Source: Schmidtea polychroa (Eukaryota). From it: a stretch of 64,000 bases of DNA. Shown here in pieces: positions 1 to 46,054 of the stretch; within the stretch, counting starts at the first letter, position 1, and each line of letters begins with the position of its first letter. The notes under the pieces were generated by a model. It made no database searches and was not told the origin of the DNA. It saw only the letters and a list, made by a program, of their open reading frames with translations. The translations under genes and the position numbers were made by a program. The stretch is from positions 9,612,001-9,676,000 of the forward strand of contig CM097885.1 in assembly GCA_044892525.1 (NCBI GenBank). Reading direction: 5' to 3'.

Positions 1-5
1 AAGCA

Positions 6-1592
6 ATGAAATTATTAGTAACATGGAGAATACCACAAAGTAATAAATATGCGATAAATATAAACGAATTCTACGAAAACGGAGAAAACGCGATGGTAAA
101 GAATACATTAACTAAAGGGGGGACACCAAAAATTATTTTAATAGTACTAAACAGGGAAGACCTCAAATTCACGCAAAATCAGAACGAGCAACAAAGAATT
201 GGGAAACATCGTCGCATTCAATTAAGAGAATTAGTCAAAGAATGGAATAGAAAGAGACACGCTGCAACGGGCAGAAAAGAGTTTGAATTCGAAGCAAAAT
301 TAGCAAGAAACAGAGTGCTAACAGCATATCGCAGATTATTGAACGATATAAATGTCGGGGACGACATTTTAAACGACAGCGGGGGAGATAAACACGATGA
401 CAATGACGGAAAAGGCCGAAAGGAGGATAAAGAGAAAAGAGAACCGGAAGAGGATACACCGGAAAACAAGGATTCGGATGCGAAAAGAGAGGGAAACAGC
501 CCGGGAACCAAGACCAAAGAGGAGGAAAAACCGAATAATGGAAAACAGAGGGTATGCCTACCTTTCACTAACAAAGAAATAGAGACAAATATGATATTAA
601 TGATAATTATGCTTACCATGATAGAGTTAGTAACAGCTCATGGAGGGACGAGAACGATAAAAGAAACCAAAGAAGCGGAGAATCAAGATGGCAAAGAGGA
701 CGAACTAAAACAAGAAAAGAAAAAGCAAGCACAAGAGCAGCAGTGGGATTTAAAGGAAGAATGGGACTTAAAGGAAAGGTGCATACTAGGAAGATGCATG
801 TCTAGAGCGTGTCAGAAACTAGTACTGATAAATGAGGACACAGAACCAATAACAGAAGTAAGAATACAAGAAGCATACCGAAATCGAGACGGGAAGAGAA
901 TAACGAACGTTAAAGGAAAAGAGGTACACCTAGGAAAAGGTGGTGAAGTAGTAATAACGCAGCTCCAACCAAGAAAAGAGCACAAAGTCTGTATTTCAAG
1001 ATTAGGACCAGGTGAGAGATGCCATCAATATGTGACGCAGCAGCAGCCCCCGAAGGAATACACGGTTTGTATCTGGAGGAACGAATCAAAAAGAGAATGC
1101 CGACGATACCCGGGGAAAAGAGAAAAGAAAAGAAAAAACCACGACGAAAAGGACGAAGGAGGAAAGCACAAGAAAACCGGCGAGGAAGCTCAGGACAACT
1201 ATGTTTCGGAGGAAGAGATGGAAAAAATACAAAAGATGGCAAAGGAGGGTATGAACGAGGAAATAGCAAGAATACGAGAGATGATGAAAGGGAATGGCAA
1301 AAGAGGGAACGAGAAAAGTACAGAAGCAATATCAACATTAACAAACAAGGAAAAACCAGAGAGTATAAGCGTGAAGCAGATGATGTGGATCAGTGGGATA
1401 ATAATAACAGGGGCATTCCTAATCATAACGGGGGGAACAATAAAAATAATTAAAGATAAACGACATCGCGGAGAACTAGAGATGACCCGAATCAGAAATT
1501 TCCAACATCGAGTGAAACGACCAAGTGATATCCAACAAGAACAGTGGGTGGAGGCCTGGAACGCTCAGCGCCCTCCAAACTCACGTATATAG
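6..1592 (+). CDS. Putative membrane protein with internal hydrophobic segment, duplicated FN3-like/Cys motif and C-terminal TM; may start upstream of the window
   Basis: 528-aa ORF; hydrophobic MILMIIMLTMIELVTA; repeated LQPRKEHKVCI / QQPPKEYTVCI motif; TM WISGIIITGAFLIITGGTIKII followed by a basic stop-transfer stretch. Confidence 0.6.
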   Translation: MKLLVTWRIPQSNKYAININEFYENGENAMVKNTLTKGGTPKIILIVLNREDLKFTQNQNEQQRIGKHRRIQLRELVKEWNRKRHAATGRKEFEFEAKLARNRVLTAYRRLLNDINVGDDILNDSGGDKHDDNDGKGRKEDKEKREPEEDTPENKDSDAKREGNSPGTKTKEEEKPNNGKQRVCLPFTNKEIETNMILMIIMLTMIELVTAHGGTRTIKETKEAENQDGKEDELKQEKKKQAQEQQWDLKEEWDLKERCILGRCMSRACQKLVLINEDTEPITEVRIQEAYRNRDGKRITNVKGKEVHLGKGGEVVITQLQPRKEHKVCISRLGPGERCHQYVTQQQPPKEYTVCIWRNESKRECRRYPGKREKKRKNHDEKDEGGKHKKTGEEAQDNYVSEEEMEKIQKMAKEGMNEEIARIREMMKGNGKRGNEKSTEAISTLTNKEKPESISVKQMMWISGIIITGAFLIITGGTIKIIKDKRHRGELEMTRIRNFQHRVKRPSDIQQEQWVEAWNAQRPPNSRI

Positions 1593-1753
1593 AAAGGAAT
1601 ATGACTGTATATAACTGTAAAAAGTAAGTATGTCTTATGTATATAACAGTACTATATCTTTATATAAGCGCGGTATCAATATTATACAATAACGGGAATC
1701 ATAAAAATAAAATTAAATTTAAATAAGAGTTGAAAAGTGTATATAAATTAAGA

Positions 1754-2113
1754 ATGGATCAAGGAAATAACGAAATGAACCACAACACAGTAACCGAAGA
1801 ATTATGGAAGCAACAATGTGCCGTATTAGCACAATTAGTGTCCAATTTGCAAGAACAAGGATTGACGATGCACAGAAACCTAATCGAGAGTATGAATAGA
1901 GGATTTAGTTATTTGAAGATAATTGAAGACCAGAGGTTAAAAATCGAACAAATGCAAAGAGAAATGGAGAGGATAACCCAATATAGCCGTAGACAGGAAA
2001 TTGAATTGGATAGAATGATGGAGGAAGCAGAACAGACAGAAATAGAAGATTGGTCAGAATGGCTAATGAGTAGAGAGGAGGGCGGACACGAAGCCGACTC
2101 TTCCGAACCATAA
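1754..2113 (+). CDS. Small coiled-coil protein
   Basis: ORF from ATG 1754 (MDQGNNE...); heptad-rich; TATA-like sequence upstream and AATAAA downstream. Confidence 0.6.
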   Translation: MDQGNNEMNHNTVTEELWKQQCAVLAQLVSNLQEQGLTMHRNLIESMNRGFSYLKIIEDQRLKIEQMQREMERITQYSRRQEIELDRMMEEAEQTEIEDWSEWLMSREEGGHEADSSEP

Positions 2114-2198
2114 ACCAAACCTAGCTTAAAATGTAAATAATTGTAAATAAAATATCGAACCTGTATCGATAAGAACTATATGTATATATAATTATAGA

Positions 2199-3578
2199 AT
2201 GGATAAACGACAAAGAGAAGAGTTCAGAGAGATTGTCGAACAAGTCAGAAAATCTACAACGATCCGAACACACAAACATGTTATGTGCGGAATCTGTGAA
2301 AAGTTGTTAAAGGAACCTCACCAAACCCAATGTGGATGCAGAGTATGTAAAGAATGTATCAGTGAAGCAATAAAGAATAGACTACAGTGGTGCCCGGTGT
2401 GTAAAGAGACACTAATATCGAGTTTAGAAGACACTAACGAGGATAAAGCCGCAGTGAAAGACATGTTAAACACCAATCTGGGATGTAAAAATACCCCATG
2501 CGAATGGAAAGGAATAATATGGAAAGTAGTGCAACATATGGGAGAATGTATGTACAGAATCGGCCAGTGTGAAAGGTGCCATAAAACCATTCGAGCAAGC
2601 GAAGAAAAAGAGCATCAAAGGCAGTGTGAAGAGAGATTAGAAAGATGTGAACATTGTGGAGAAATAGATACGTGGAGAAATCTCACCATCAAACATCACA
2701 ATGTCCAAGAGGAGAGAGTATGTGCAGAGTTCAGTGGGGAATGCCCAAACGGATGTAACCAAGGGGAAATAATAAAGGTGGCACAGCATCTAAGGGAATG
2801 TGAAAAGAAAAGAATGACATGTGTACTAGGTAAATGGGGTTGTCAGAAACTACTACACCGAGGGGAGTTACCACATCATTTAGTAGAAAATGCTTCAACC
2901 CACGCAGAAATGTGGTCGACTGCGTTACAAGAAAGCGAAGAGAAAGTAAAACAAATGGAGATAGAGATAACATCGTTGAAAGTGTTAGTCAAAGAACTAC
3001 TAGAAGAAAGGGAAGCGTTCGAAGAAGCCCGAGCAAACATAAAGATGCAAATAAACCGAATAGAAATCAGTAATAATCAGGCCAAGGAGCTACATCAGAA
3101 AATACGGGAAATAAATCTAAATGAAGTAATACCAACAGCACCCTACATATGGAAAATAACGGGAGTAAAAGAAAGAATACGAAAAGCAAAAACCGGAGAA
3201 GAGACAAGGATAACAAGTCCTGCATTCCATTCTTGGAAAAATGGGTACAAGATGAAAATGAGGATATATCCCAACGGGGATGGAACCGGATCGAATACGC
3301 ATTTTTCGATATTTTTCCTATTATGTAAAGGGGAATATGACGAGGTAATAGAATGGCCATTCCAGGCAAAAATCGATATCGCAATGATGAACGACCAAAG
3401 CGTCCACGAACAAAGCTTTAAAACAACGGGAACCCAGCTGTGTTACCGGCGACCTATGGAGGAAGAAGGAGCAGCATCAGGGGCACCTACGTTCATCTTG
3501 CAGCAAAAGGTGGAAGAGATGACGGAAAATGACACAATATATATAAAAATGACAGTACGAAGGGAAGGAAAAGGTTGA
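2199..3578 (+). CDS. TRAF: TRAF-family protein (RING, TRAF zinc fingers, coiled coil, MATH/TRAF-C), intronless
   Basis: CGICEKLLKEPHQTQCGCRVCKEC..CPVC RING; C/H zinc fingers; YIWKI, SPAF, GYKMKMRIYPNGDG, HFSIFF, GEYDEVIEWPF, ASGAPTFI, NDTIYIK MATH motifs. Confidence 0.95.
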   Translation: MDKRQREEFREIVEQVRKSTTIRTHKHVMCGICEKLLKEPHQTQCGCRVCKECISEAIKNRLQWCPVCKETLISSLEDTNEDKAAVKDMLNTNLGCKNTPCEWKGIIWKVVQHMGECMYRIGQCERCHKTIRASEEKEHQRQCEERLERCEHCGEIDTWRNLTIKHHNVQEERVCAEFSGECPNGCNQGEIIKVAQHLRECEKKRMTCVLGKWGCQKLLHRGELPHHLVENASTHAEMWSTALQESEEKVKQMEIEITSLKVLVKELLEEREAFEEARANIKMQINRIEISNNQAKELHQKIREINLNEVIPTAPYIWKITGVKERIRKAKTGEETRITSPAFHSWKNGYKMKMRIYPNGDGTGSNTHFSIFFLLCKGEYDEVIEWPFQAKIDIAMMNDQSVHEQSFKTTGTQLCYRRPMEEEGAASGAPTFILQQKVEEMTENDTIYIKMTVRREGKG

Positions 3579-3781
3579 ACGGAGTAACCCATCGAATAAT
3601 GTTGTATATAATAATCTGTATATATCGGTGTATATAACCAATAAAATATTATATAATAATAGTATGAAAAACCCTAAATACGAAAACCCAAAAATGATGC
3701 GAAAATTTCCAAAGAAACAGTAAATAATGAATAAATTCCTTTTTCATAATAAAAAGATTAATCGATGTCTATGATTTAGAG

Positions 3782-4777
3782 ATGACACAAGAGAAAATAA
3801 CCGAAACTGCGATAGCCCCAACCAATGTCAACAAGACACAAATTCCCCGAGAACATAACAAAAAATGGAACAAAGTAATGTTCCAACTAACTAATCTCAC
3901 CCGAAATCACATCGAAGAAGCTAGAGAGGATGAGAATAGTCAATACCAATGGTTAATACACAACTTAAGAGCGGAAGCAGAAGCATGCAAAAGAGCATCA
4001 AAATGGGCGTCACTAGAAAATACCCGCCAAGAAGCGCACAGCCACTACTTAAAGCAGCTAGTGCAGGAAGCGAGAAAGAGACTTACCGATGAGAACACCA
4101 AGCGCGAAGCGGAAAAGCAAATAGAAGGAAGGAAAATGATGCACTTAGTAGCAGAAGCGAGAAAATGGAAAAGACAAAACAGTGAAATGAAAAAAGAGAT
4201 GAAAGAATTGCCCATGAGACTCGGATATGAGAGCGAACAGGGCAAATGGGAGGAAAATTTAATAATAAAGGAAGAACTGAAACGGTTGAAAAAGGTCGCC
4301 GCCCGAAGCCAAACATGGCAGATGAAGGCTATGGAGTTTGAGCGACATTTGGCAATAAAATGCGACATAAGAGAGCACGAGAATGCCGCAATGGAAGAGA
4401 TGATAACCCAGCAAGCAGGACGGGTTGTGGAATTAGTAAATCAGGTCGAAGAGATGAAAAGAGACCTTAATGGATTACAAGGATCGTTAGAACAAAGAAA
4501 CATGGTCCTAGCGGGAAAAAACAGAAAATTAGAAAACGAGAGGAAAATGTATACCGAAAATATCAAAAACTTGGAAATAGAAATTGAAAAATGGAAGGGC
4601 GACGAGAAAATCAAGGCCTTAGATAGACAAGTAGAGGCGAATGACGAAGAGACAAGGTATCTCACTTATCTGCTCGACGAAGAGCTGAATATCACTCGAG
4701 CTCTAAGAGACGAAGTTAATGAATTGAGAGCTCAAATCCCCCAATATTACCTACCCTATGACCCTATTCCGATATAG
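3782..4777 (+). CDS. Coiled-coil protein of unknown function
   Basis: 331-aa E/K/R-rich heptad ORF with the same strand bias as its neighbours. Confidence 0.7.
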   Translation: MTQEKITETAIAPTNVNKTQIPREHNKKWNKVMFQLTNLTRNHIEEAREDENSQYQWLIHNLRAEAEACKRASKWASLENTRQEAHSHYLKQLVQEARKRLTDENTKREAEKQIEGRKMMHLVAEARKWKRQNSEMKKEMKELPMRLGYESEQGKWEENLIIKEELKRLKKVAARSQTWQMKAMEFERHLAIKCDIREHENAAMEEMITQQAGRVVELVNQVEEMKRDLNGLQGSLEQRNMVLAGKNRKLENERKMYTENIKNLEIEIEKWKGDEKIKALDRQVEANDEETRYLTYLLDEELNITRALRDEVNELRAQIPQYYLPYDPIPI

Positions 4778-5002
4778 TTGCATCCAGCGGTCGATAGTGA
4801 TGAAGGTTATGTGGGACAGGAGGAAACCTTCGTATAAGGGTGAATAAAAAGATAAAAACAAAAATCGGGACGTATATCCCAAACAAAAAAATTAAAGTAT
4901 TGTAAAAGTATTCAAGGGACTGTAACCCGAACTATTAAATTTTATATAAATCTATATGTATAAGTCGCACTATAGCGCACCATTAACTGTACATATTACA
5001 GA

Positions 5003-5713
5003 TATGAAAATCGAGGAAATAATAGAAATTACGAGCGACGTAGAAGAGGGAGAGATTGAGGCAGAAACAACAGAAACACAAACGTTAAAGGCCAAGTTAC
5101 GGGAAGAGAAGTACGAAAACGAGAGACTAGTAAACAAATATATAGAAGACCGAAAAATGATTAAAATACTAAAGAAGGAGTGCGAAGTGCTAGGAGAAAT
5201 AAAGAGAGAAGCTGAAGAGAAGAATGAATGGCTGCAAGAACAACGAACACGAGGAAGAAACTGGGAAAGATTGCAGAGGAACTATGGCAAGAGAGGGCAA
5301 GCTTCAAGGCAGAAGAAGTAATCCAGGATTATTGGAAAACAGAGGCGAAAGAACGCCAAATAACTATAAATAAATTAAATCGACAATTGGAGGAAAAACA
5401 ACGAGAAAGTGAGGAAATGAAGAAATGGATTCGCAAATACCAAGAGATCGAGAGAAAACAACAACAACAACAACAACAACGAAACCTTTCGCAGGAAAAC
5501 GAACGAGATTTCCTACAAATCGAACTAAAAAGGAATCTCGACAAAAAACGGGAAGAAATTAGAAGACTGAAAAAGGAGATAAGGCACATGAAAAGGGAGG
5601 TCCGTGAAAAGAACAGACAGTTGGAAATGCTGCCCGAGTTAAGACACAGAGTCATTAAAGCGGAATCCACCCTGATGAGAATCGCCGAAAATAACCCAAA
5701 TCAGAATCATTAA
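5003..5713 (+). pseudogene. Coiled-coil gene apparently split by a frameshift near 5250
   Basis: Overlapping ORFs 4956-5321 and 5228-5713 read as one continuous coiled coil if the frame shifts near acacgaggaagaaac. Confidence 0.55.
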
Positions 5714-5754
5714 ATTAAGGGTCACTAAAACCAATTGTAAATAAACCATAATGA

Positions 5755-6324
5755 ATGTATAATAGTATCATGCGAGGCGAGATGATGATAACAATGACGG
5801 TATTGATGATTCTGATGGAGAGCAAGCAAGTAAGCACCCAACCGAAAATCGTACGAGATTACCGAAATCAAAATCAAGAACCTAAACAAGAATCCGGCCA
5901 ATGCACATACCCTATGACAGTAAAAATCCATATCATCCAAACCATTCAATCAACCCGATCACACATCAACAACATCCAAACAATGTGTAAAAAGAATCCC
6001 ATTTGTAAAATGATAAACAAACAAATCCTCGAACAAATCCAACAATTCGACCAGTTGGAACAACAAATGCAACAAGAGAATTTTGAAAATCTTGTAGAAA
6101 AGCCAAAAACACCTCCCGAAATCAATAACACCCATTATCTCATATATGTGGTGATCGCAGAAACCCTCCTCCTATGTCTACCAATACTCATGAAGATTTA
6201 CGAAGTTAGAAATAAATGTAGAATCTCGACATCAATAAGAGTAACCTCGAACAGAAATCCTCAAGAAGTGCCACTGACAAATCTTAACCCAACCCCATTC
6301 CGACCTCGAATCCCGAGTAACTAA
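5755..6324 (+). CDS. Type I membrane protein (signal peptide, Cys-containing ectodomain, TM, Pro-rich tail)
   Basis: N-terminal MMITMTVLMILM; TM YLIYVVIAETLLLCLPILMKIY. Confidence 0.6.
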   Translation: MYNSIMRGEMMITMTVLMILMESKQVSTQPKIVRDYRNQNQEPKQESGQCTYPMTVKIHIIQTIQSTRSHINNIQTMCKKNPICKMINKQILEQIQQFDQLEQQMQQENFENLVEKPKTPPEINNTHYLIYVVIAETLLLCLPILMKIYEVRNKCRISTSIRVTSNRNPQEVPLTNLNPTPFRPRIPSN

Positions 6325-6649
6325 CCAATCCAGCCGAATTCTAACAGTCAGACCTATCTCAACATCAATACCCAAACCAACCAACAACCGCCAGCAGAAG
6401 CATCAAATGGTTAACAGTTCATAAACTCTAACTCAAACATTTGTGTTATCATATGTGGAAACTTTTATTGTATATACAAACTATCACCTTAGGTGATACT
6501 TGCTTGGTCTTGATTTGACCTATATCTTAGAATAAAATTTTTTTTTTGTTATTGTAGTATAATTGTTTCGATATATCCTTTTTATGAATGCATGAAGTAA
6601 GATAACTATGCAATTGCGGGACGCAATTTTGATGGGTCCCCGAGTGATT

Positions 6650-7260
6650 TGTTGGGCTGAGTCGAAGGGTAGTTGGGAAATTAGGGCAAACTTAACTAAA
6701 ATAAAATAAAAAATAAAACCAAATAAATTGACAAATAAAATAGAATAAAACATAAGAAAAACAATAATTAGAAAATAAGAATTAAAACAAAAAATATAAA
6801 GATGAGAAAAATTAAAATAGGACAATAGAATGACGGAAAACAACGTAAAATATAGTAAATAATAAGAAAATTAAGGAAAATAAATAAAAACATAATTTTA
6901 ATAAAGAAAGTAAGAAGAAATAACTCAAAAACAAGGAAAATAAATTAAATTAATAAAATTAAGCGGTACTCAATTCTAATTGGTCCGCGCAAACAAAAAA
7001 TTAATATATAAGCAGGCATTAAAAACATAACAATTACTGTTAATCAAACCACCTCAATAGGTAAGTGAAATTTAAATAACAAACTACTGTTAATCAAACC
7101 ACCTCAATAGGTAAATCTATTCTACGACAGTACAGAAATCCAGCAACTAACGCACGATAACTCACGAGGACAATTCCAAGATTCAAGAGATTTTTACAGA
7201 ACTAGACGATATTCGAGCATTAACTGATTCGACACAGTACCCTTTTCGACTCAGCCCATA
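6650..7260 (+). mobile_element. LTR-like unit, probable 3' LTR of the upstream cassette
   Basis: Starts TGTT; perfect 14-bp inverted repeat TGGGCTGAGTCGAA (6653-6666) / TTCGACTCAGCCCA (7245-7258); TATATAA near 7005; internal ~29-bp direct repeat near 7036 and 7086. Confidence 0.5.
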
Positions 7261-9508
7261 CTTATATCAATCATTCGGTAAGGATTTTTGATTTCTTATT
7301 TTGAATTTTTAAGTAATGCGTATAGTCTAATAATATTTTTAATTTAAAGAATGGTTTTTCTTTTCGTTTGATTTTCGAATGCTTTATTGAAATTAATGAT
7401 TTGGCTAATAATAAATGATCTGCTTTCTAGGAATTATTGATTTTTCTTTGATGAATTATTTTTATGAGTTATTATTATGTTAATTAAATTTTTGAGGAAC
7501 GTGGCGTTGAGATACTCTATGTCATGGTGTGAGGTGCCTTCGGGAGCTCCACCGGTGGACATAGAGTATTTCAATCACGCAGCTAGATTGGGCCGAAATG
7601 TGGGGGCTTCTTCACGGGTCCAATCGCTGAAGGTGCGACTAAAATCTATAGGTAAATTGTGGCAGAAAATTGATAGTCATATAGTGATTGAAAACAAAGA
7701 TATGTAATAAATGAATCGGAGAATTTTGATGTATTCGCGCAGTGATTGAGGGCGTCACACCATCGTCTCCAGATATCGTTTCTACTAAGCCAAATTTTCT
7801 CTATCAGTGAGGTAATCGTTCAGACCTTAGTGAGGCTATGTGTGACATATCTTCGATGTTCACCCTTTTCACCCAGAATCTGTTCCGACCCATTTTTGCC
7901 TATGACCTTTAGAACTGTTATTCCGTTCATCTAAAAGTTTTCTTAGAGACATAGTAGTAAGGAAGTTCAAAATAGATTGCTTCAGACAAGTATTAGGATT
8001 ACTCGAAATGACTGCTTGTAAATCAATGGTAGAACCATGTAAAATGATTTAGTCCAAATAGTTATTCAGAATTGCATAAAACGAGTTTGTTCCAAATAAA
8101 AGTTTAAATTACATAAAATGATTTGCTATAATAAATTTTTAGAATTTTATATAAAAGGATTTACATACAATTAATTATCATAATTACATAAACTATTGGC
8201 ATCAAATAATTTAAAAATGAAAAATGCAACCAATTCGAGCCAAGAAAAATATATTTCTTCAATTTAGCCGATGATCTTGTTAATTAAATATAAAATTCCA
8301 GTATTTCATGGGGTTGGCAATCCAGCAGGGATAGGTAGAAAATCTCCAGAACTTAGAGAATAGATCGATAAACTGTGTTTGAGGAATTAAAGACGAAAAA
8401 TCCACCCCTGGAGCAAACCATATCCAACGTCTGCGATATAGAGAATCATAATTTTTCCAATAATTCGGTGAGAATTAGTAGATCATCATCATATGCAGGA
8501 GAATTGTGAGCAATTACGCGGTAGATAAAAATCCGAGAAAATGCCATCATGCAAACATTTAACACCTACATTTGTAGCGACGAGTATAAATAAGTGTGTG
8601 AAAGCGCACCTTACATGCGTCACCCAGTTGCAGACATACCCAGTAGGCAAGTACAGTGGGCAAGGTCACACCCGCCTCTACTCATGAAAAATCGGACCGG
8701 ACGTATCAGATGGAATTTCCATTAGCTAATTAAATCACCGACAGGCATCAGATTTCATCGCTCCAGATTGATAGTCAACCACCGGGCTGACGTTTACTTA
8801 TCTACCTAGCAGGAATGGTCGGCTGCTAGCTCACATTGATACCGTGCTCAGTTATCATAACGACAATATCTTTTGATGCTAAACCCAATCATAATTATGA
8901 TTATTTTTTCTTTATTATCTTAGCATGAATGATACAGAAACTATTTCATTTTTGACCTAATTATCATTAGTATTAATATTAAATATTATTAAACAAGTAT
9001 TATTTAAACAAGATAAAACAAATATGTGAGTAATTAGAGAGAATGAATAAATAATCGAAAAATTAAATAACCTTCCGTTTATCATGTAGGAACTAATTAA
9101 AAGACATTATGGGCCCCCTTTTCCGTAGATATTTACTCGACCCCAGTATATGATACACTCATCAAAATCACTCGTTCGGGGGGAGAAGTCAACAATTTAA
9201 CTCGATTCTCGGTAAACGTGAAATAATGACTTCAAGCGGATTAAATAAATAATCATTTTCATCGACCTAGAATTTCTCTCACTAATGGTAATATCTCCCT
9301 TTCCTTGTGCGAAATCTGGTTTGATCGATTTATCTTCTTATAATTAAAGACCCAAAAGGTATGAGGATCCATCGTGCAGTAGAACTTGTCTTGACTGGTA
9401 AACCCATATTTTTGTCTATGATCAGTAAAGTATGAATGTGGTCAGATGGTGACACTCCCGTTGATTTAATTATTTTCATTTTTCATTTTTTCTCCACAGT
9501 CACTCAAA

Positions 9509-10258
9509 ATGTTGCCAAATTCCAAGACCGTTCTTCGCCCTTGTTTTTCTTGTTCCGACAAGAATTCAATTATCAAAGAGCTCCAGGCCCAAATCGGAAA
9601 GCACAAAAGGAGAATAGATGAGTTAGGGGGGACATGGTTTAGTCCCACCCAGATGAAGGAGGTTCAGAAGAAGCTGCACCGAAGCGAGCACTGTAGAGAC
9701 GCGTTAATCTCCGAGAGTCGGGCGCAGAGGAGCCTAATAAAAGAGCAGGCGGAGGCGCTGCACAAATTATACGTCCAGGCAGCAACTACCAGGAAGATCG
9801 CGAAGATCCCAATTAATGAAGCCGGAAATCTTTTCCCTGCGCATCATAATATCTCTGGTGGGTCTTCTTCTCCAGTCGGGAAGTCCTGCCATGGGTGCGT
9901 AGAGGCCGAGCTCTCACCTAAAGAACCGGAAATCATCTTTACCGGAACTAGTAAAGTGCTACCTGCGATGGCATCTACCTCTGCAACCCCCCCGACCAAT
10001 CAGGCGGCATCGAAGCCAAAGCGTCGGCAATTATCGAGAGCCGAGCGCAAAAAGAAACAGCGGGAACGCGTAACCGCCAAACAGGACCAGAAACCGACGG
10101 ATCATCCGGTCGAAGTCATCACCCCTCCGGCAGCAATCGAGCTGGCATCAGTGATCTCTGGGCGAATCATCTCCGCCGCTGGTGTCACCTGGGAGGAAAA
10201 TGCCTCTGAATTTTTCGATTTGGAAGATCTATTGGCAGACTCGGAGTGGGAGAAATGA
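9509..10258 (+). CDS. Hypothetical protein with coiled coil and basic NLS-like stretch, probably TE-associated
   Basis: 249-aa ORF in a GC-richer island; KPKRRQLSRAERKKKQR. Confidence 0.45.
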   Translation: MLPNSKTVLRPCFSCSDKNSIIKELQAQIGKHKRRIDELGGTWFSPTQMKEVQKKLHRSEHCRDALISESRAQRSLIKEQAEALHKLYVQAATTRKIAKIPINEAGNLFPAHHNISGGSSSPVGKSCHGCVEAELSPKEPEIIFTGTSKVLPAMASTSATPPTNQAASKPKRRQLSRAERKKKQRERVTAKQDQKPTDHPVEVITPPAAIELASVISGRIISAAGVTWEENASEFFDLEDLLADSEWEK

Positions 10259-12045
10259 GAACTTCTCCGTAAAAGGTTTTCGTTCTCTGAAATTACCCGA
10301 ACATTGTCTGATAACATTTTTACCTTTGTCTCTTTTCCTGTTGTCGTGAATTATATTGTATAAGTGTTAGATATATTTGTGTGATAATCTTAATAATAAA
10401 CCATTTGTGTCTGCATACGTTTTTTTTGTGTGTTCATCTTAGGACAGTTGAGTTGAAATTGGTGAATGGTATTGAGAGTCACAAAATTTTGAGGAGCATT
10501 AGTCAGTTGGCAACTCAGCTAGAAACATTGCGATGGGGCGACGGAATGAGTAGACGTAAGTCCTTCTATCGGCAGTCAGGGTTGGGAAGTCGAGGCCTCA
10601 GTAAGGAGTAGTCCGAAGGAGCTGGCTCACCTGCTTACTGGCGTCTCGCCGGCATAGCACAGTTCCAACGTGAAGCAATTCACGGGTGCTATGTTGGAGT
10701 GTAGGTTATGTACGGGTCCCGCTCGGCGATGACCAAATAAATGACGGGCGAAATCGAGGTGGGCATTCATCCTCTAGACTAAAGCTGCACTAGAAAGGGG
10801 TCATCCGAGTAGTGTACCCGCAACATAATATAATTTTTGTTCAGTTCAACTTTAATGAAGCAGCGTTTTTGTATTCTTAAAAAATTATTTCTAAAATATT
10901 TGAAATTTGAAAAAGGCCCTTTCAATATCTTGGAATGCGTATACAAAAGGCGGTCTATTTAGATTCAAACCCGATCAAAATAGTGTTTTTATTGTTTTAA
11001 CGGTAGACGAAATTGGGAATTCGTGTAAATTGCGATAGTTTTGCAATAAAAAATCTTGCAAAAACACCAAAGTATTGAAAATGTGTTTGTAAGTTTGAAT
11101 AGGAAACGGGGTTTACTTAATATTTAATAAAATTAATATGTGTTTAAGTGGCTGTGATTATTTAAATTTCTTGGAAAATGCGTTTAACACCAGAAAAATT
11201 AAAAGAAAAAATGGCAATAAAGTTATTAATTTAAAATGCGCCAGGAGAATACATAATAATATAAAAATAAATGGTAAACATTATAATACTTGGTAATAGA
11301 ATAACAATCACTGAAACCAGTTTATTTTTGTTACTTTGTAATCCGCTACAAAACTAACTACTTTTTAATTGACACGGCCCTCGATTGCTGTTATAAGAAA
11401 AATTTGGCCCTTCATAATATTTAGTTGAATACCCATGCTCTAGTACATTACATAAAATTACATAAAATTACATAAAATTACATAACATGTATCTTTAATT
11501 GTTTTTCTTTTTTATGCTGATCAATTTTTGGATGTACGTTTTTTTCGAAATTTTTATCTGGCAAGCCTAATATATATATATGTGTTTTATTTCAACTACA
11601 AAGGCTTTGACCCTCCTAAGAAAAAGGGAAACAGATATAATACTGTTTTTATCTCTCGAATTCAACTTTTTATTAATTGCTTATTACTTCGAATATAGGC
11701 TGCACCCTAATTTTGCAGATTAAAAATGTACTAAGTACTAAGTGTGGCTTATATTCGAAGAACTACGGTACTTAATTTATTTAATAAAGTTATTTTAAAT
11801 CAAATTTCAAAGATGCAAAATTGTAATATTTGCTGTTAAAAAATTTAATAGTTAATATAGAACTTTTAAATTTTTAATTTAAAATAGAATCGAAAATGTA
11901 AAACATACAAGAATTAAATTTAATTACGAAATTCCAAAATTTATTTTAGTGTTTAACTAAACTAAATTTATCATATTTTTAGATAAAGCGCAATTCAAAT
12001 ATTAAATTGTAAATGAAAGATATTTTTATTTCAATTAATAAAAAC

Positions 12046-16199: not shown

Positions 16200-16910
16200 C
16201 CATGACTCATCGTTTTTTATCATTTTTTTGCACTACCCCCCCGATGACTCAGCGCAAAACAAAGACATATGACTCATCGATGACTCATCCATAGCAACAG
16301 CGGTAACTGGGTCAAGGTTATATGACTCACCCATAGCAACTGGGTCAAGGTCACATGACTCATCCATAGCAACCGCGGTAACTAGGTCAAGGTCATTCTA
16401 TTTTTAGTAACTAGGTCAAGGTCATTCTATTTTTAGTAACAATGTCACGTGACGTCATCGATGACTCATCAAGGTCATTCTATTTTTAGTAACTAGGTCA
16501 TGTGACGGCATCGATGACTCGTCAAGGTCATTCTATTTTTAGTAACAAGGTCATATGACTCATCATTTTTGGAACAAAGCCAACTGACTCATTATTAAAG
16601 TATGTATGACTCATCATTTTTTAAACAAAGATATATTTAATATTTAAATAAATACATTTAAACAAATATTTAAATAAATACATTTAAACAAATATTTAAA
16701 TAAATACATTTAAACAAAAATTTAAATAAATACATTTAAACAAATATTTAAATAAATACATTTAAACAAATATTTAAACAAAGACATTTAATCAAATATT
16801 TAAATACATTTAAACAAAGACATATAGACAAAGACTCATCGATGACTCATACTTTAGATAGGAGGTTTCTTTTTTTTGCATACTTCTCCCCCCCTTGTAT
16901 GACTCATCGA
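16200..16910. promoter_or_regulatory. Subterminal cluster of TGACTCA, TGACGTCA and TCAAGGTCA motifs (mirrored near 32160-32885)
   Basis: 12 TGACTCA counted by eye, plus CACGTGACGTCA and repeated GGTCAAGGTCA. Confidence 0.6.
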
Positions 16911-17045
16911 TGACTTTTTTGAACAAAGACCAATCATTTATTTTTAAATAAAAGACTCATCACACGACTCTAATTTTTAGAAGACTTCTTTTTTGGTAAA
17001 CCAAAATTTATTGTATGTCGCTACAGAATAATAATAATAATAACA

Positions 17046-17120
<75 letters not shown>

Positions 17121-17484
17121 TTAATAATAATAATAATAAAAACATACCCATTTCTTCATAAAAAAGTTTGTTTTCATAAAATTTATTTCATAAATCATAT
17201 AATTTGTTTTCATAAAAACTGGTTTCATAAAAAAAAAATAAAAATTAATCATAAAAAAATTTCATTATAAAAAAATTTAAATCATAAAAAAATAATAATT
17301 ACCTCATTTGAAAAAGATGTACAAAGTATCGATAACATCTAACCAATCAGAATTGGATATTATCGATGCTTTGTTCTCTGAATATGACTCATCGATGAGT
17401 CATTGTTACTAACTGAGTAATTTCTACTCACATAAAGACATGCAATACAAGTGCAATACAAGTGCATGAAATGTCTTTATGTAA

Positions 17485-17541
<57 letters not shown>

Positions 17542-17558
17542 GTAATAATAATAATTAA

Positions 17559-17607
<49 letters not shown>

Positions 17608-17781
17608 CTTAGAAAAATAGTAATCAACAAAATATATTTAAATTACAAATTTACAATTTTACATTGTCATTTTTACAAATGTCTGTTGCATTGATTGTTT
17701 CTTACAATCTTGGCTTCATTGACAACTATTAATAATAAAAAATAATAATTATAATAATAATTATTATTATTACCGAAATGA

Positions 17782-20700
17782 TCAGTAATCTTCTCCGTCA
17801 AAATTGTCGTCATCATCATATATAAAAGTGTCCCCTATCCGATAATGCCCATATGCCAAACTCTTGTTTTTCGATTTCCAATACCGCTTGTCATCTCTAT
17901 TTGTCAGCGCCTTCTTAATGTTTTTTATGCTGTACAATTGATGATTTTTGGATGCAATGCGGAATTGTGGCACAGAGTAAACCTTATTGTTAAAATAACA
18001 ATCACGATAGGAATTGTGATCTAAGCCAGTATCTTTCAACGTGACAGATTTTGCTTTAAGAGTTTCTTTATCACCTAATAAGCTGTAACACTTGGGACGA
18101 AGAAACACCCACTCCTTATATCTCAATCCTTTATTCTCGTCTTTGAATTTTCCAATGACGGAATCTAGTGCTCTACTATATAAAGGATGTTGTGGGTTAT
18201 AATTAGATGTGTCAAGCAAGGAGTCACGAATCATGGCAGGTAAGAGAATGTCAAGACTACAATTTTTAATTTCCAAAAAGAAAGAGTCTGTATCACTAGC
18301 TACTATATTAATTTCACAGTTAAACTCATCGCGATATTTTTGCAATTCATTATACTGCAACTGATACATTCTCAGTTTAGAAAGATCAAGTACAGTTTGC
18401 CCGATGTAGCTGGGCCTATCTAAACATACAGACTCTTTCATAAGCAAAACCGAAATCAAATCATCGTCTATCCTAGTAGATTTCTTAAATGCCGGTTTTG
18501 AGGCATATGTGATAAGTTTTTGTGCGGAAATGCACAGTCGTAAGTTAATACGTTTTTTCAAGTTCTCAACAGTTTTTCCATACAAACTGTTATTGAGCAA
18601 CTTGTAATAGTCTTTATCGAGCGGTGTTATGGATGCGGCTCGTAGTTGTGTGTTGGTATCTATGTATTTCTTGAAGACAGTGCTTTGTGTATACCTAATA
18701 GCCCTATGTACCTTGGTAACAACAACACCTGACTGAAGAAAGATTTGGAGAAGTCGCCAATGTAAAACATAGTGTGTTTTCGGATCGTGTGTAAGTAGCA
18801 ACTTCTCCACTTTAGAAAAAGGTGGGCACATCTTACCAGGAGCTACCGGAAAATCATCTAGTTTGTCATGGATAGATTTCGGTATTTTTAAATCTACTTC
18901 TATAGTATAGCCATAATCAAGTTGATTTAAATCTTCCGTTGTGCACTCAATTAATAATCTCTCTAAAGCAATGTCATCAGTCACCCATTCAAAACCACCG
19001 TCGGGAAGCTTTTGTGATAAAGCCCATCCATACAGGTTGTTGATGTCAATATACAACAACTCTGTATTTTCATCACTACTAACAAAATGTTTATTCACAA
19101 ACGTTATCCCACCTCTAATCCCACCTTCAAAGAAATTATACATTTCCATGTCGGTGAGAAGCTCAATCGGTTTATCAAGACTTAACAAAGCAGAACTCCA
19201 AGAAAGACTGGGGATACCTAGGAAATTCAAAGGCTCAAGCCTATTATGAGCAATACTCTTAGCTCGGAATTGCTGAAAAAAGTCAGCCAACAGAAATACA
19301 TCTAATTTCAAATAGACCATCATATAATCCAAAAGGGAATTACATGATGTCTCTTGCCAGATTAGTTTTGCTTTATTGTATTCATCATCGGATACATCAC
19401 TCCATTTAGGGGGCAATTCTAATGTAGAAATTAATACATCAAGGGAAGTTGCTACATCATAAGGGAAAATCCCTTTACTCTTAATAATAGACCCTCTAAA
19501 CTCAGATTCTGTCAAAGGTAATGTGTTAAGGGTTGAGACAGCATTTTTCAAAGACGAATTTACAAACTGACAAGAATCTATAAATTTCACAGTCAGGGAA
19601 TCAATATGCACAAAAAGAGATAAAAAGTTTTCACTTCTCACCGGTATACAAGAAATATCCCAGGACTTATATTTAGCCAAGCCAAATTTGAGGATATGAT
19701 GGAGATCATACCCTCTCAAATTATGAAAGACTACAGGTAGTGTGTGGTATATTTTCCTGGAAAGATTACAAGTGTTGCAAGCAGCACCAAGGAATTGACC
19801 GGTAAAGTGATCATGATCCCTGACTGGTTTAACTAATAATTTTTTACACAAATGACAGTTTGTGCTGTTATTAAAATTAATTTGGTCATTTTCTGTGAAT
19901 ATCATTTTCTTATTTTTATTTTTATAATAATAGGGAGTTACAATCTTTTTAGCGATATCATTAATTTCTTTTAAAAATTCGTCTATACAAGAAAGGCCTA
20001 TGAATGATTTATAAAATTTTGCGCCTGTATTATTATTTATACATAAAAGTCCAGCCGAAATGGGTAAATGTTTCTGATAATATTTAGAATCTTTAGGAAG
20101 GATTGCCTCAAAATCGGCATAAATAACAAAAGGAGGAGTAATCATTTTACTATAGTCTGTGAATTCTAATAATGGATCTTTTGGTAGTGTGTACATTGTG
20201 GTTCCTAATTGGTTTCGTTCACAAAGACCTTGATGTTTAATAAAACTATCTTCAAATCTGAATCCATTCAGACATCTAGGACACCACTTACAGTAAATAC
20301 GAACAGAACTTATTGATGAATTTCGGCAATTAAGAAAGATGTTTAAATCAGATATAGCGACGTAATGGTAGGTTTTCCGATTCTGTAATAATAACAAATT
20401 TAGACAAGTACCTCCTACTATTTTACTGCGATAAATTATATCTATAAAAGGATGTTTCATGATGGGACCCGAAATTAACCCAGTTTCGTCATAACTTAAA
20501 ACATTAATTGAATAACCTGGGTTTTGTCGTTCAAATTTTGAGATATTTGATAATTTCATTGGCATATCTGCCGGGTTATATATCAGATCTGAAAGGTTAT
20601 AAGAACTAGGCAGATGACGCAATTCATCAGGAGTACTATCATATTTTATAAGAGCCAAAACCGAGTAAAGGAAACAAAATTCGTCATCATTATTTACATT

Positions 20701-21684
20701 TATTATACATTTTTTCCTGATTAATGTTTTCGGGGTTTCAATATATTTACGACCACTCAACCTACTAATCTTTGAATATTTTGTCACAATAAAACTAATG
20801 TATTCTATTTTGTTAATGGTCCAATTACTTCCCTTTTCATTTATTTTACTAATTTTTTCATTTAAAAGAGAGATACCATCATCAATAAATGTGTCGCTCC
20901 ATACACGAGCAGAGTTTGAGATTATGAAAGACTGAAATTCATCATTTTTCTCAAACTCTACTTTAATACAAAATTGAATTTTTACTGATTTCATTTTATT
21001 TACAATTTCTAACAATTTTTCTATGAGAACGTCAGGAACAGAAAGAATTTTACAATTCAAGGAAGATATATCCAACTTAACTATTACATGGGAACTATTC
21101 AGGTCGGAAACTACGTCGACTATACCACTACCTACTTGGGGTACAACATCACTATTTTCAAATTCACTATTTTCACTATTTTCAAATTCACTATTTATAA
21201 CTTCACTATTTATAACTTCACTATTTACAACTTCACTATTTACAACTTCATTACTTACAACATCATCGTCGTCTTCACTAATGACTATTATTTCTTTCAT
21301 CTTTTTTGTGGGAATTTCTGTGGGAATTTCTAAATGTCTTTTATTACCTATTATTCCTATTAATCTATTGACTGTTTCCATTAATTGTCGATTTTGTATC
21401 AACATGGCATTAATCATACTTTTGTTGGTGGTCCTATTATTGATTTTTGTTGATGTTTCCATTAATTGTCGATTTTGTAAGTTTTCGGTGTTCCTATTAT
21501 TAGTTGATGATATATATTTTTGATACGCAATTTTGAAAACTGATTTTTTAGAAGGCATATATTGGGTTAAATGATTACGATGTTTATCATAAAATTCGGT
21601 ATATGTCGATGTTTCAAGAGTTTGGCATGTAGGACACAACAAGTATGTTACACTTTTATATTCATGACCATAATATTTTTCCAT
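17782..21684 (-). CDS. polB: Protein-primed family B DNA polymerase, copy 1
   Basis: YADFE, FHNLRGYD, DINNLYG, YKLLNNSLYGK, SDTDS and PKCYS motifs; endonuclease VII-like RDHDHFTG..AACNTCN. Confidence 0.97.
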   Translation of the reverse strand: MEKYYGHEYKSVTYLLCPTCQTLETSTYTEFYDKHRNHLTQYMPSKKSVFKIAYQKYISSTNNRNTENLQNRQLMETSTKINNRTTNKSMINAMLIQNRQLMETVNRLIGIIGNKRHLEIPTEIPTKKMKEIIVISEDDDDVVSNEVVNSEVVNSEVINSEVINSEFENSENSEFENSDVVPQVGSGIVDVVSDLNSSHVIVKLDISSLNCKILSVPDVLIEKLLEIVNKMKSVKIQFCIKVEFEKNDEFQSFIISNSARVWSDTFIDDGISLLNEKISKINEKGSNWTINKIEYISFIVTKYSKISRLSGRKYIETPKTLIRKKCIINVNNDDEFCFLYSVLALIKYDSTPDELRHLPSSYNLSDLIYNPADMPMKLSNISKFERQNPGYSINVLSYDETGLISGPIMKHPFIDIIYRSKIVGGTCLNLLLLQNRKTYHYVAISDLNIFLNCRNSSISSVRIYCKWCPRCLNGFRFEDSFIKHQGLCERNQLGTTMYTLPKDPLLEFTDYSKMITPPFVIYADFEAILPKDSKYYQKHLPISAGLLCINNNTGAKFYKSFIGLSCIDEFLKEINDIAKKIVTPYYYKNKNKKMIFTENDQINFNNSTNCHLCKKLLVKPVRDHDHFTGQFLGAACNTCNLSRKIYHTLPVVFHNLRGYDLHHILKFGLAKYKSWDISCIPVRSENFLSLFVHIDSLTVKFIDSCQFVNSSLKNAVSTLNTLPLTESEFRGSIIKSKGIFPYDVATSLDVLISTLELPPKWSDVSDDEYNKAKLIWQETSCNSLLDYMMVYLKLDVFLLADFFQQFRAKSIAHNRLEPLNFLGIPSLSWSSALLSLDKPIELLTDMEMYNFFEGGIRGGITFVNKHFVSSDENTELLYIDINNLYGWALSQKLPDGGFEWVTDDIALERLLIECTTEDLNQLDYGYTIEVDLKIPKSIHDKLDDFPVAPGKMCPPFSKVEKLLLTHDPKTHYVLHWRLLQIFLQSGVVVTKVHRAIRYTQSTVFKKYIDTNTQLRAASITPLDKDYYKLLNNSLYGKTVENLKKRINLRLCISAQKLITYASKPAFKKSTRIDDDLISVLLMKESVCLDRPSYIGQTVLDLSKLRMYQLQYNELQKYRDEFNCEINIVASDTDSFFLEIKNCSLDILLPAMIRDSLLDTSNYNPQHPLYSRALDSVIGKFKDENKGLRYKEWVFLRPKCYSLLGDKETLKAKSVTLKDTGLDHNSYRDCYFNNKVYSVPQFRIASKNHQLYSIKNIKKALTNRDDKRYWKSKNKSLAYGHYRIGDTFIYDDDDNFDGEDY

Positions 21685-21887
21685 AATATCGTCACAGTCA
21701 TGATGTGTAGCACTGTTACAAAAGGTTGGATATTTATAACCTATAAAATAAGTAAAATAGTATTATTATCAAAATTATTATTATTTATTATTACTATATA
21801 ATCTGAGTTTATACGACAAAATATTCTGTCCCTCCCTTGCTCATAAGTGTATTATATTTAAATTTATTTTAATTAAATAAAAACATA

Positions 21888-22145
21888 CAGTCTTTTCCAA
21901 ATTATGTTATTGATGATTTACTTGCTATTTTAATTAAAGTTGTTAAAGGTAAATTCCGTATAAGTACATCAAATAAAAAGATTTTGAACAGACACAAGAA
22001 ACCACTATTATCATTAGTAAATACTAAAAATAAAAAACGTATGCGTAAAATCATATATAAACAACAAGGAGGCTTCATTGCAGCCTTGATACCAATAGCA
22101 TTATCTTTATTGGGAGGGGCAGGTTTATTAAAATCATCATCATAA
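21888..22145 (+). pseudogene. 5'-truncated small Polinton virion protein (QxGG site followed by an amphipathic helix)
   Basis: Frame QSFPNYVIDDLL...KQQGGFIAALIPIALSLLGGAG; no ATG at its 5' end; the open frame begins at the inverted-arm boundary. Confidence 0.7.
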
Positions 22146-22148
22146 ACA

Positions 22149-22370
22149 ATGGGTCAATCATTACCAAATCTTAATTTGAATTTTAAATCTTCCTGTTGTA
22201 ATGGAGAAGATTTGGACGAACCCAGAAGACGAAGCCGGTTTCGGTGGAGTGGCAAAATTAAAGAAAAGAGTTCCGAATTCGAAAAAAGAAACCCAGAAGT
22301 GGTTATCAAATCAACTAGCGTACAGTTTGAACAAACCAATGCAGAAAAGATTTCCAACAAGAGCGTATAA
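22149..22370 (+). CDS. Candidate overprinted small lipidated protein
   Basis: MGQSL...KSSCC; ATG 4 nt after the upstream stop; overlaps the integrase in another frame. Confidence 0.4.
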   Translation: MGQSLPNLNLNFKSSCCNGEDLDEPRRRSRFRWSGKIKEKSSEFEKRNPEVVIKSTSVQFEQTNAEKISNKSV

Positions 22371-22588
22371 AACATATGGAATAAATGATTTGTGGCAAAT
22401 GGATTTGATGGAGATGATACCCTATTCAAAAATTAACAAGGGGTATAAATATATTTTAACGTGTATTAATGTATACAGCAGGTTTGCACGAGCAATACCA
22501 GTCAAGTCAAAATCTGCAGATGAAATGTCCAAAGCTATTAATATTTTATTTAAAAATGGACATCCTAACAATTTACAAACGGATTTAG

Positions 22589-22686
<98 letters not shown>

Positions 22687-23316
22687 TTAGGTAAAGAATT
22701 CTACAACAGTAAAGTTAAGCAAATCCTCGATAAACTGAAAATAAATCACTACTCGGTACATTCTCAATACAAAGCTGCTCATGTTGAAAGATTTAACAGA
22801 ACCTTGAGAGATAGATTAAAGAAATTGTTCGTGTATCAAGGTAATAAAAAATGGGTATTGGTTTTACCAAAAATTATAACCAGTTATAATAATTCATCAC
22901 ATCGAGGACTTAATGGATTGAGACCGGTTGATATCACATCAAAAACATTCTATTCTAAAAAATCTGAAAAAATTACAAAACCGAAATATAAAGTTGGTGA
23001 CCATGTTAGAATTAGTAAAATTAGTGCATCACCATTTATTAAAAATTTCGATACAAATTGGAGTGATGAAGTCTTTGTAATTTCGAAAATAAATACTAGC
23101 CAGAACCCTGTGATGTATGTCATCAGAGATTCTGAAAATAACATTGTACATGGGAAATTTTATGAGCAAGAATTACAAGTCATTCCTCCCCCAAAAGTAT
23201 TTAGAATTCAAAAAATATTGAAAACTAAAATGGTGGGTAAGGATAAACAATACTATGTCAAATGGCATGGATATAAAAACCCATCATGGATATCGTCTCG
23301 AGACCTCGTAAAATGA
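22201..23316 (+). CDS. int: Retroviral-like integrase with C-terminal chromodomain; intron 22589-22690
   Basis: LWQMDL, QTDLG|KEF, VERFNRTL, YYVKWHGY..SWI; GT-(ATT)n-AG intron. Confidence 0.95.
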
Positions 23317-25937: not shown

Positions 25938-25967
25938 ATGAAGAAATTTAAAAGATTAAAGTTTTTT

Positions 25968-26352: not shown

Positions 26353-26374
26353 TAAATGTATTAAATGTCACAAG

Positions 26375-26458
<84 letters not shown>

Positions 26459-31452: not shown

Positions 31453-31501
<49 letters not shown>

Positions 31502-31518
31502 TTAATTATTATTATTAC

Positions 31519-31572
<54 letters not shown>

Positions 31573-31965: not shown

Positions 31966-32035
<70 letters not shown>

Positions 32036-42660: not shown

Positions 42661-42722
<62 letters not shown>

Positions 42723-46036: not shown

Positions 46037-46054
46037 TTATTATATTTTAATTAT

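Follow-up and report, generated by a model that had tools for sequence, protein, structure and literature searches.

A multi-copy six-gene block with a full-length TRAF gene in Schmidtea polychroa, probably the 3' accessory end of a giant LTR retrotransposon

Six A-rich genes without introns lie co-oriented in a row on the plus strand of a 64,000-nucleotide stretch of the Schmidtea polychroa genome (hereafter the window), at positions 6-6324, and one of them encodes a complete TRAF protein. Our analysis supports a cassette that is mobile, multi-copy and protein-coding, and an excess of silent differences among its copies indicates that the genes are likely under selection. We propose, with a probability of about 0.58, that this selected multi-copy block with its captured TRAF is the 3' accessory end of a giant Gypsy LTR retrotransposon of the Burro type whose genes are expressed by leader splicing.

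Results

Seven frames encode the six genes in the present copy, since ORF5 is split over two overlapping frames. Plus-strand frames of at least 100 aa sum to 2,052 aa, and none of 500 Markov simulations gave more than 348, which bears out the first-pass annotation's description of six same-strand intronless genes. The strong A-rich strand bias described there also holds: A content is 43% and AT skew is 0.41 in the cassette, as compared with an AT skew of 0.04-0.20 for four further ORFs of mobile elements in the same window. The skew follows the coding strand, is uniform along the block and fades near a 606-bp unit at 6653-7258. Searches by sequence and by fold gave no known family or structure match for five of the six genes. 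No related locus was found in viral contigs or by protein search of metagenome contigs. Three pattern matches of 19-21 nt in metagenome contigs were GC-rich (54-68%) and otherwise unlike the window, and we attribute them to chance.

The gene that does have relatives is ORF3 (2199-3578, plus strand), an intronless, full-length TRAF of 459 aa with a RING, a zinc-finger array, a coiled coil and a MATH domain. Its MATH domain (aa 316-453) is matched in Pfam with an E-value of 1.7e-26 (PF21355, 93 bits against a cut-off of 27.4), and in the PDB ORF3 matches TRAF1, 3 and 2 best (E about 1e-27), confirming that the cassette contains a TRAF gene, as had been noted. Residues 23-161 resemble the solved RING-zinc-finger regions of TRAF5, 6 and 2, with E-values down to 1e-13; Pfam RING matches fall under their cut-offs. 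The RING (aa 30-68) has Cys where a His ligand is usual, a change also found in P0001, which is 36% identical to ORF3. The MATH domain lies C-terminal of the coiled coil, whose heptad score at aa 243 exceeds all 60 of 60 shuffles.

Three further genes had been described as coiled-coil ORFs. Using a rough heptad score, we found this to hold for ORF2 (1754-2113, plus strand), ORF4 (3782-4777, plus strand) and the second frame of ORF5, with 0, 1 and 1 of 60 shuffles, respectively, reaching the observed value. It does not hold for the first ORF5 frame, which scores no better than chance (10 of 60 shuffles). ORF2 encodes 119 aa with an acidic end and belongs to no Pfam family, and ORF4 encodes a 331-aa orphan with no relative among 1,307 candidates. 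ORF5 (5004-5713, plus strand) consists of the overlapping frames 5004-5321 and 5228-5713, and the length of the overlap region varies between other copies.

Hydrophobic stretches are predicted in the two remaining proteins, two in ORF1 and one clear one in ORF6, in agreement with the membrane location suggested earlier. ORF1 (6-1592, plus strand) is an orphan of 528 aa whose frame is open to the window start. It has a charged N-terminal part, a signal-like hydrophobic stretch at aa ~196-214, a Cys-containing, beta-rich middle, and a predicted transmembrane helix at aa ~464-482 followed by a 45-aa tail. No relative was found among 1.84 billion proteins, nor any Atlas match for aa 1-125 or aa 213-400. 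ORF6 (5755-6324, plus strand), an orphan of 189 aa, has a signal-like start, a predicted helical hairpin, one predicted transmembrane helix and a short tail, and no match by fold or sequence. Structure prediction, which had been suggested as a check, gave a low-confidence model for ORF1 (pLDDT 47.5) and the helical hairpin for ORF6, neither with a fold match. A fibronectin-III-like look of ORF1 at aa ~300-360 and an Env-like role for this protein, both noticed by eye, were not supported, and a resemblance between the ORF6 hairpin loop and a viral fusion subunit found no support either.

Contig records on positions 1-11000, taken over all identity bands, numbered 11,395, 4,113, 2,808 and 512 in four runs from three studies; such records reveal many diverged copies and are not a copy count. 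Runs X1-X4 come from a single study, and the assembled sample may be among them; the small-share runs X6 and X8-X15 were left out, as was X7. That X7 is RNA is only a guess; its cover mirrors the DNA pattern, and contigs cannot display RNA splice joints. In run X1, transitions make up 529 of the 702 variable places in 1-11000. Among the coding differences listed, 19 of 31 are silent, against 27% expected (P = 7e-5). A copy-number check had been recommended, with single-copy host genes as the opposing outcome; the family seen is diverged and multi-copy, and refutation by way of single-copy host genes fails.

These data bear on the view that the block consists of host genes or retrocopies, present as tandem or segmental duplicates, next to an unrelated MITE at 6653-7258. 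Planarian TRAF-like genes are indeed numerous and some are essential (PMC6109357, PMC7586133), and neither a target-site duplication nor a transposition gene was found in the block. However, five of the six genes match no known family or structure, all are intronless, their spacers measure only 41-226 nt, the strand skew is uniform, and the diverged contig records run to thousands. For the proposed MITE, none of eight end pairs tried around the 606-bp unit has a target-site duplication, which rules out a MITE with such a duplication for those pairs. We consider this origin highly improbable.

The short spacers had been credited with TATA-like and AATAAA signals. They are short, but neither signal is clearly above chance in them: TATAWA occurs 14 times against 8.7 expected (117 of 2,000 shuffles reach this number), and AATAAA 8 times against 5.6 expected (365 of 2,000). 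The enriched word is instead TGTAHATA. The 1,062 nt of spacer contain 12 instances on the plus strand, at 1606, 1638, 1738, 2132, 2142, 2181, 3603, 3617, 3629, 4988, 5736 and 6469 (overall span 1606-6476), against 0.69 expected, and none of 2,000 shuffles reaches 12. There is no instance in the ORFs and one on the minus strand. Three of the words lie 16-18 nt upstream of a start codon. TGTAHATA agrees with the Pumilio/PUF binding word, and its occurrence would fit a Pumilio-type 3' UTR element or a branch-point signal.

Candidate splice acceptors with the sequence TTNYAG lie on the plus strand at 2192-2197, 1 nt before the TRAF start codon, and at 4996-5001, 2 nt before the ORF5 start codon. 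With the caveat that the acceptor and donor patterns were chosen post hoc and that the ORF6 start is the second Met, an exact TTNYAG is found within 4 nt of two of five start codons (130 of 100,000 random draws), and one with at most one mismatch at four of five (17 of 100,000). A possible likeness of positions 4943-4958 to the planarian spliced leader was dropped. UUNYAG is given as the flatworm acceptor motif in PMC12582326. At 6531-6547 on the plus strand, AATAAA followed by ten T is the putative poly(A) signal of the last gene.

Beyond that signal lies the 606-bp TG...CA unit (plus strand, 50% A), a candidate LTR or the end of a much larger LTR. The first-pass annotation had described a unit starting with TGTT and bounded by 14-bp terminal inverted repeats. 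TGTT is present at 6650 and the 14-bp inverted arms are perfect (6653-6666 and 7245-7258; 2 matches against 0.08 expected), but the right end lacks a matching AACA. Moreover, the arms run from 6653 to 7258, not 7260, and make up the core of an inverted repeat that is longer and imperfect (6640-6673 paired with 7236-7278, together 6640-7278). This repeat extends beyond the TG...CA ends, as it would not in a clean LTR; hence, the arms are not clearly terminal. The outer arm of this repeat has 9 matches in 10 positions (72 of 200,000 shuffles are as good), and the whole is predicted to form a long-range RNA stem (z = -2.9, 20 shuffles). We detected no polypurine tract before 6650 or 6653 (7 of 15 are purines) and no purine run of 10 in 6301-7400. 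Because the tract is missing and the inverted repeat overshoots both ends, the designation "3' LTR" is unproven. The missing tract favours a location of the genes inside the U3 of an LTR longer than 7 kb over one just before a 606-bp LTR. The TG...CA unit has no second copy within the 64-kb window. Positions 6633-6650, which start with TGG, may resemble a tRNA primer site; no TGG-started stretch was found after 7258, and the window has no tRNA genes.

Within the unit, a candidate promoter and leader exon occupy 7005-7116 on the plus strand: TATATAA at 7005 lies upstream of two 33-nt direct repeats (7032-7064 and 7082-7114), each of which ends in a donor-like sequence, AG/GTAAGT at 7059-7066 and AG/GTAAAT at 7109-7116. 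AGGTAAGT occurs twice, counting both strands of the window. Summed depth, which does not equal copy number, is higher over the 3' half of the unit than over the adjoining spacer and ORF6 in three runs, and half as high in X2.

The cassette is most likely carried by a giant LTR retroelement, since TRAF/MATH has been reported as cargo of planarian Burro elements. PMC6431247 describes MATH_TRAF_C in Burro/GYPSM1; in one element, from Dugesia tigrina, it has an accessory ORF to itself, upstream of gag. The same source places Burro cargo mostly inside one polyprotein of 4,900-5,100 aa. Two traits expected of a Burro element, TRAF/MATH cargo and many diverged copies, are present here. Positions 1-7300 contain no gag, protease, reverse transcriptase or integrase. 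We obtained no link by sequence to a Burro element; by their Pfam lists, the five longer TRAF-like matches are not polyproteins of retroelements. The earlier placement of the block in the 3' region of a very large LTR retrotransposon is partly supported, by the multi-copy cassette and the Burro precedent, while the lack of a polypurine tract at the unit speaks against it.

That lack counts in favour of another carrier, a DIRS-like, Penelope/Terminon-like or DNA virus-like element, in which the inverted repeat would not be an LTR but an internal region of complementarity or a structure at a terminus. Consistent with this, the repeat has arms of ~35-40 bp spaced by 600 bp close to the apparent right end, and an internal stretch is complementary to that end; DIRS-like elements have a tyrosine recombinase and an internal region complementary to both ends. 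The genome is rich in Polintons, and Terminons have arrays of co-oriented coiled-coil ORFs, as does the block. Terminons are also named in PMC6431247. Conversely, genes for a recombinase, a polymerase or a capsid are lacking in the block, the sequence to the left of the arm was not found again as a direct copy near the right end, and a Polinton ORF in the same window has an AT skew of 0.04, against 0.41 in the cassette. In an Rfam search of 1-12000, from which divergent hammerheads may escape, no hammerhead family was found at E-values up to 5, and there was no family of note, only two weak matches at chance level. We regard carriers of these kinds as possible but clearly less probable than a giant LTR retroelement.

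The first-pass annotation had likened the cassette to a receptor-plus-adaptor module of the LMP1 type. In the strong form of this idea, the cytoplasmic tail of ORF1 would recruit the TRAF encoded by the element itself, much as LMP1 does with those of its host. The two genes belong to the same block, and both vary mostly silently among copies. A predicted complex of MATH (aa 305-459) with the ORF1 tail (aa 485-528) scored 0.45, against 0.09 for the best of three controls. In the calibration, 51 of 78 solved complexes but also 2 of 108 mismatched pairs came up to the mark, and scores of 0.60 or less include only 5 of the 78 solved complexes and all 4 mismatches that passed. The runs share at least 72% of contacts, and partner pLDDT is at least 57. 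However, the pass may reflect likeness to solved TRAF-peptide structures, and the calibration set contained no peptides. TRAF-binding consensus motifs are (P/S/A/T)x(Q/E)E, PxQxT/S, PxQxxD and PxExx-acid/aromatic; the predicted tails of ORF1 and ORF6 have none of the four. With its six membrane helices and its PxQxT motif, EBV LMP1 engages the TRAFs of the host, whereas ORF1 and ORF6 have one predicted membrane anchor each. The complex score hints weakly at the module, while the motifs and layout do not resemble those of LMP1, and we consider recruitment of this kind unlikely.

Discussion

If the cassette is the accessory end of a giant Burro-like element, a spliced host TRAF mRNA may have been captured during reverse transcription. 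Transcription would be driven by the TATA box at 7005 within the element's upstream terminal repeat, and the donor at 7059-7066, or a flatworm spliced leader, would be joined to the acceptors before the genes. The TGTAHATA words may control the mRNAs as a Pumilio-type 3' UTR element, or may act as a branch-point signal. The element's TRAF would serve as an E3 ligase or adaptor and thereby adjust signalling for host survival or immunity in the expressing cell; a similar role is proposed for Burro apoptosis and ubiquitin cargo.

TRAF cargo in planarian Burro elements is already published (PMC6431247). In an abstract-level literature search we found no paper on a six-gene layout or Pumilio sites in such an element; Repbase or the primary Burro papers may describe the cassette. 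The planarian TRAF expansion, which is reported as unexplained, has been put at 121 MATH domains (PMC6109357) and at 282 contigs (PMC7586133), and for many planarian traf mRNAs degradation through the piRNA pathway has been described (PMC6824462). A complete TRAF that is under selection and sits on a mobile element with many copies would be one testable explanation for both the expansion and the piRNA degradation. If so, part of the unusually large planarian TRAF family would be carried by jumping genes, and the Burro theme of retroelements with cell-survival genes would extend from domains of a polyprotein to a block of individual genes that have RNA signals of their own. The most far-reaching version, in which a giant retroelement with a splicing-resolved, operon-like six-gene block, perhaps in its terminal repeat, under Pumilio control and with a receptor and its own TRAF, lies behind much of the TRAF expansion, is a long shot.

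Several known systems resemble the cassette in part. ORF3 has the domain order of TRAF1/2/3/5-type proteins (RING, zinc fingers, coiled coil, MATH); it differs from them in being intronless, A-rich and multi-copy, with Cys replacing the RING His ligand. With Burro/GYPSM1, the cassette shares high copy number, captured TRAF/MATH and coiled-coil (Smc-like) cargo, and the Burro theme of ubiquitin and cell-survival proteins matches its contents. In contrast to the Burro polyprotein, the cassette has six separate, short-spaced genes, among them a complete TRAF with its RING and two orphans predicted to be membrane proteins. Its genes reach the element's apparent end, whereas the accessory TRAF ORF known from print precedes gag and does not follow pol. 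Foamy-like fish ERVs, which are complex retroelements, are named in PMC6431247. The 3' accessory genes of complex retroelements are co-oriented at the 3' end like those of the cassette, probably with splicing from a 5'-repeat leader; the cassette differs in its six genes, its captured host signalling adaptor and its TGTAHATA-rich spacers, and its splicing is predicted. The retroviral accessory genes nef, bel and sag lie in or near U3. The sole parallel with EBV LMP1 is the notion that a membrane protein encoded by the element works through a TRAF: the cassette proteins are single-pass, have no consensus motif and stand beside the element's own TRAF.

A diverged multigene cassette with a TRAF

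An ORF scan of the window identified a block of six genes at 6-6324, comprising seven open frames in one orientation: ORF1 (6-1592, +), whose frame is open at the window's start and which may therefore begin upstream; ORF2 (1754-2113, +); ORF3 (2199-3578, +); ORF4 (3782-4777, +); ORF5 (5004-5713, +), which is split into two overlapping frames in the copy read here; and ORF6 (5755-6324, +). Plus-strand frames of at least 100 aa sum to 2,052 aa, against a maximum of 348 in 500 second-order Markov simulations. The coding strand of the block is 43% A with an AT skew of 0.41, as compared with 0.04-0.20 in four other mobile-element ORFs of the window, and this skew dies away at ~7100-7250. The first-pass annotation had described six same-strand genes with an A-rich strand bias, and both features were borne out.

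ORF3 is a complete TRAF. Its MATH domain matches the Pfam profile (E 1.7e-26); among solved structures, its best matches are TRAF1, 3 and 2, and its RING-zinc-finger part resembles TRAF5/6. At 36% identity, the closest database relative is P0001, in which, as in ORF3, a Cys replaces the His that normally serves as a RING ligand. A single membrane helix is predicted in each of ORF1 and ORF6, and each also has a signal-like stretch, that of ORF6 being judged by eye and under the cut-off. By a rough home-made measure, coiled coils are scored in ORF2, ORF4 and the second frame of ORF5. No Pfam family reached its cut-off for any of the five non-TRAF genes, and ORF1 and ORF4 had no relatives in large protein sets.

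A copy-number check had been called for in the first-pass annotation, and the region proved to be multi-copy. We placed contigs of four public runs (three studies) on 1-11000. Run X1 gave 11,395 contig records, a count that spans the whole 11 kb, including a second repeat to the right of the cassette: 3,550 at 99% identity or more, 3,427 at 95-99%, 3,144 at 90-95% and 1,274 under 90%. Transitions account for 529 of 702 variable places in this run. Across the four runs, summed depth, which does not equal copy number and which for X1 may come from the very sample assembled, was ~5 to 130 times higher over 1-5138 than over 7708-9542. Among the 40 best-supported of 1,441 differences, a non-random sample, 31 lie inside ORFs, and 19 of these are silent, where the spectrum of changes seen in the run itself predicts 27% (P 7e-5); the figure is 18 of 28 once one stop-codon row and two microsatellite-edge rows are removed. 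Silent differences are present in all genes of the cassette. Because records are numerous across identity bands and silent differences are in excess, we conclude that the cassette is a diverged, protein-coding repeat family rather than a single-copy host cluster.

Spacer signals and expression

The TATA and AATAAA signals noted earlier in the spacers are within chance expectation for sequence so A/T-rich. What is enriched there is TGTAHATA, a match to the Pumilio/PUF binding word, with 12 copies in 1,062 nt (0.69 expected); the ORFs have none and the minus strand a single one. The start codons of ORF2, ORF3 and ORF5 are each preceded by a copy at a distance of 16-18 nt, too near for an RNA polymerase II TATA box. 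The arrangement word-AG-ATG, a pattern set after inspection, occurs nowhere else in the window. UUNYAG, described as a flatworm acceptor motif in PMC12582326, is found exactly ahead of ORF3 and ORF5 (130 of 100,000 random draws), and with one mismatch ahead of ORF4 and the second Met of ORF6 (17 of 100,000 for four genes at no more than one mismatch). Trans-splicing and operons are reported from free-living flatworms in PMC8629364. We infer that each gene would be reached by splicing, either from a leader carried by the terminal repeat at the element's upstream end or from the spliced leader.

A possible receptor for the TRAF

The first-pass annotation had likened the cassette to a receptor-plus-adaptor module in the manner of LMP1, the EBV membrane protein that engages TRAFs. 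The consensus TRAF motif is absent from the ORF1 and ORF6 tails. When the MATH domain and the ORF1 tail were modelled as a complex, the score was 0.45 (best control 0.09), with partner pLDDT of at least 57 and at least 72% of contacts shared between runs; already solved TRAF-peptide structures may drive this score. In calibration, 51 of 78 solved pairs and 2 of 108 mismatched pairs attained the mark; at 0.60 or under, only 5 of the 78 did so, as did all 4 passing mismatches. The modelled complex lends the idea weak support, and we consider it unlikely that the MATH domain really binds the ORF1 tail.

The right end of the cassette

An LTR-like end with 14-bp inverted repeats had also been proposed, and stands in part. 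The two arms, 6653-6666 and 7245-7258, match perfectly, recur nowhere else in the window and bound a 606-bp TG...CA unit (6653-7258, +). A terminal repeat is favoured by TATATAA at 7005 and, ~50 nt further, by AG/GTAAGT (7059-7066), which the window contains at two places only. The plain LTR reading is weakened, since no polypurine tract was found ahead of the unit, the inverted repeat runs outward past the ends (6640-6649 pairs with 7269-7278 at 9 of 10 positions; 72 of 200,000 shuffles), and depth shows no consistent rise in the unit's 3' half over the bin preceding the unit. The unit's ends are predicted to fold as one long stem (z -2.9, from only 20 shuffles). In one contig of run X2, 7285-7523 is joined on its left to unlike sequence, a junction compatible with an element end at ~7260-7285. 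To the right lies a separate multi-copy repeat (7285-10900), with ends high in depth, a 249-aa orphan ORF (9509-10258) and variants that carry internal deletions.

Repeats and mobile-element genes elsewhere in the window

A small fold-back element (58425-59756) has 289-bp perfect arms, and its 15-nt internal repeats resemble 7234-7250, just inside the 606-bp unit's right arm. A large inverted duplication (16236-32845), with 100% complementary 4.3-kb arms (17489-21785 and 27275-31571) and two 1,326-aa ORFs flanking a Polinton-type integrase ORF, could be a Polinton folded back on itself or an artefact of the assembly. A 1,153-aa mosaic frame (51546-55007, -) joins an EAP30 piece, a proteasome subunit piece and ubiquitin to DUF1759 (BEL/Pao gag); its host pieces are repeated at 50495-51094 (-). 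We also found a protein-primed DNA polymerase B with an endonuclease VII domain in several frames (39798-43453, -), an apparently intact 435-aa Tigger/pogo-type transposase frame (33446-34753, +), and 144-bp satellite arrays in inverted orientation (44556-47091) flanked by 1.1-kb inverted arms (42820-43932 and 47081-48193).

Comparison with giant planarian retroelements

Our favoured reading, at slightly better than even (roughly 0.58), is that a Burro-like giant Gypsy element carries the cassette as its accessory block. It is not assigned as a Burro member, because the polypurine tract expected for a short LTR is absent and any gag-pol upstream would lie outside the window. The cassette may sit within the U3 region of a very long LTR; this would account for the missing polypurine tract, for a promoter ~250 nt short of the end and for the "upstream" position published for a TRAF. 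The TRAF would serve as an E3/adaptor in survival or immune signalling; a Burro1 IAP reportedly protects stem cells (cited in PMC13465017).

TRAF expansion in planarians is reported in PMC6109357, PMC7586133 and PMC8807557, and many traf mRNAs undergo piRNA decay (PMC6824462); the passages of these four papers on those subjects do not raise a mobile-element origin, and "transpos" is absent from the main text of PMC7586133. In the literature listings and abstracts searched, no block in which six genes stand apart and bear such RNA signals came up. That giant retroelements of planarians can carry a TRAF is already in print: PMC6431247 lists MATH_TRAF_C, Smc-like, BIR, BCL2 and ankyrin cargo for the giant Gypsy-like elements Burro/GYPSM1, and places a TRAF on a separate upstream accessory ORF in a D. 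tigrina element. The cassette described here likewise carries a TRAF, as Burro carries MATH_TRAF_C.
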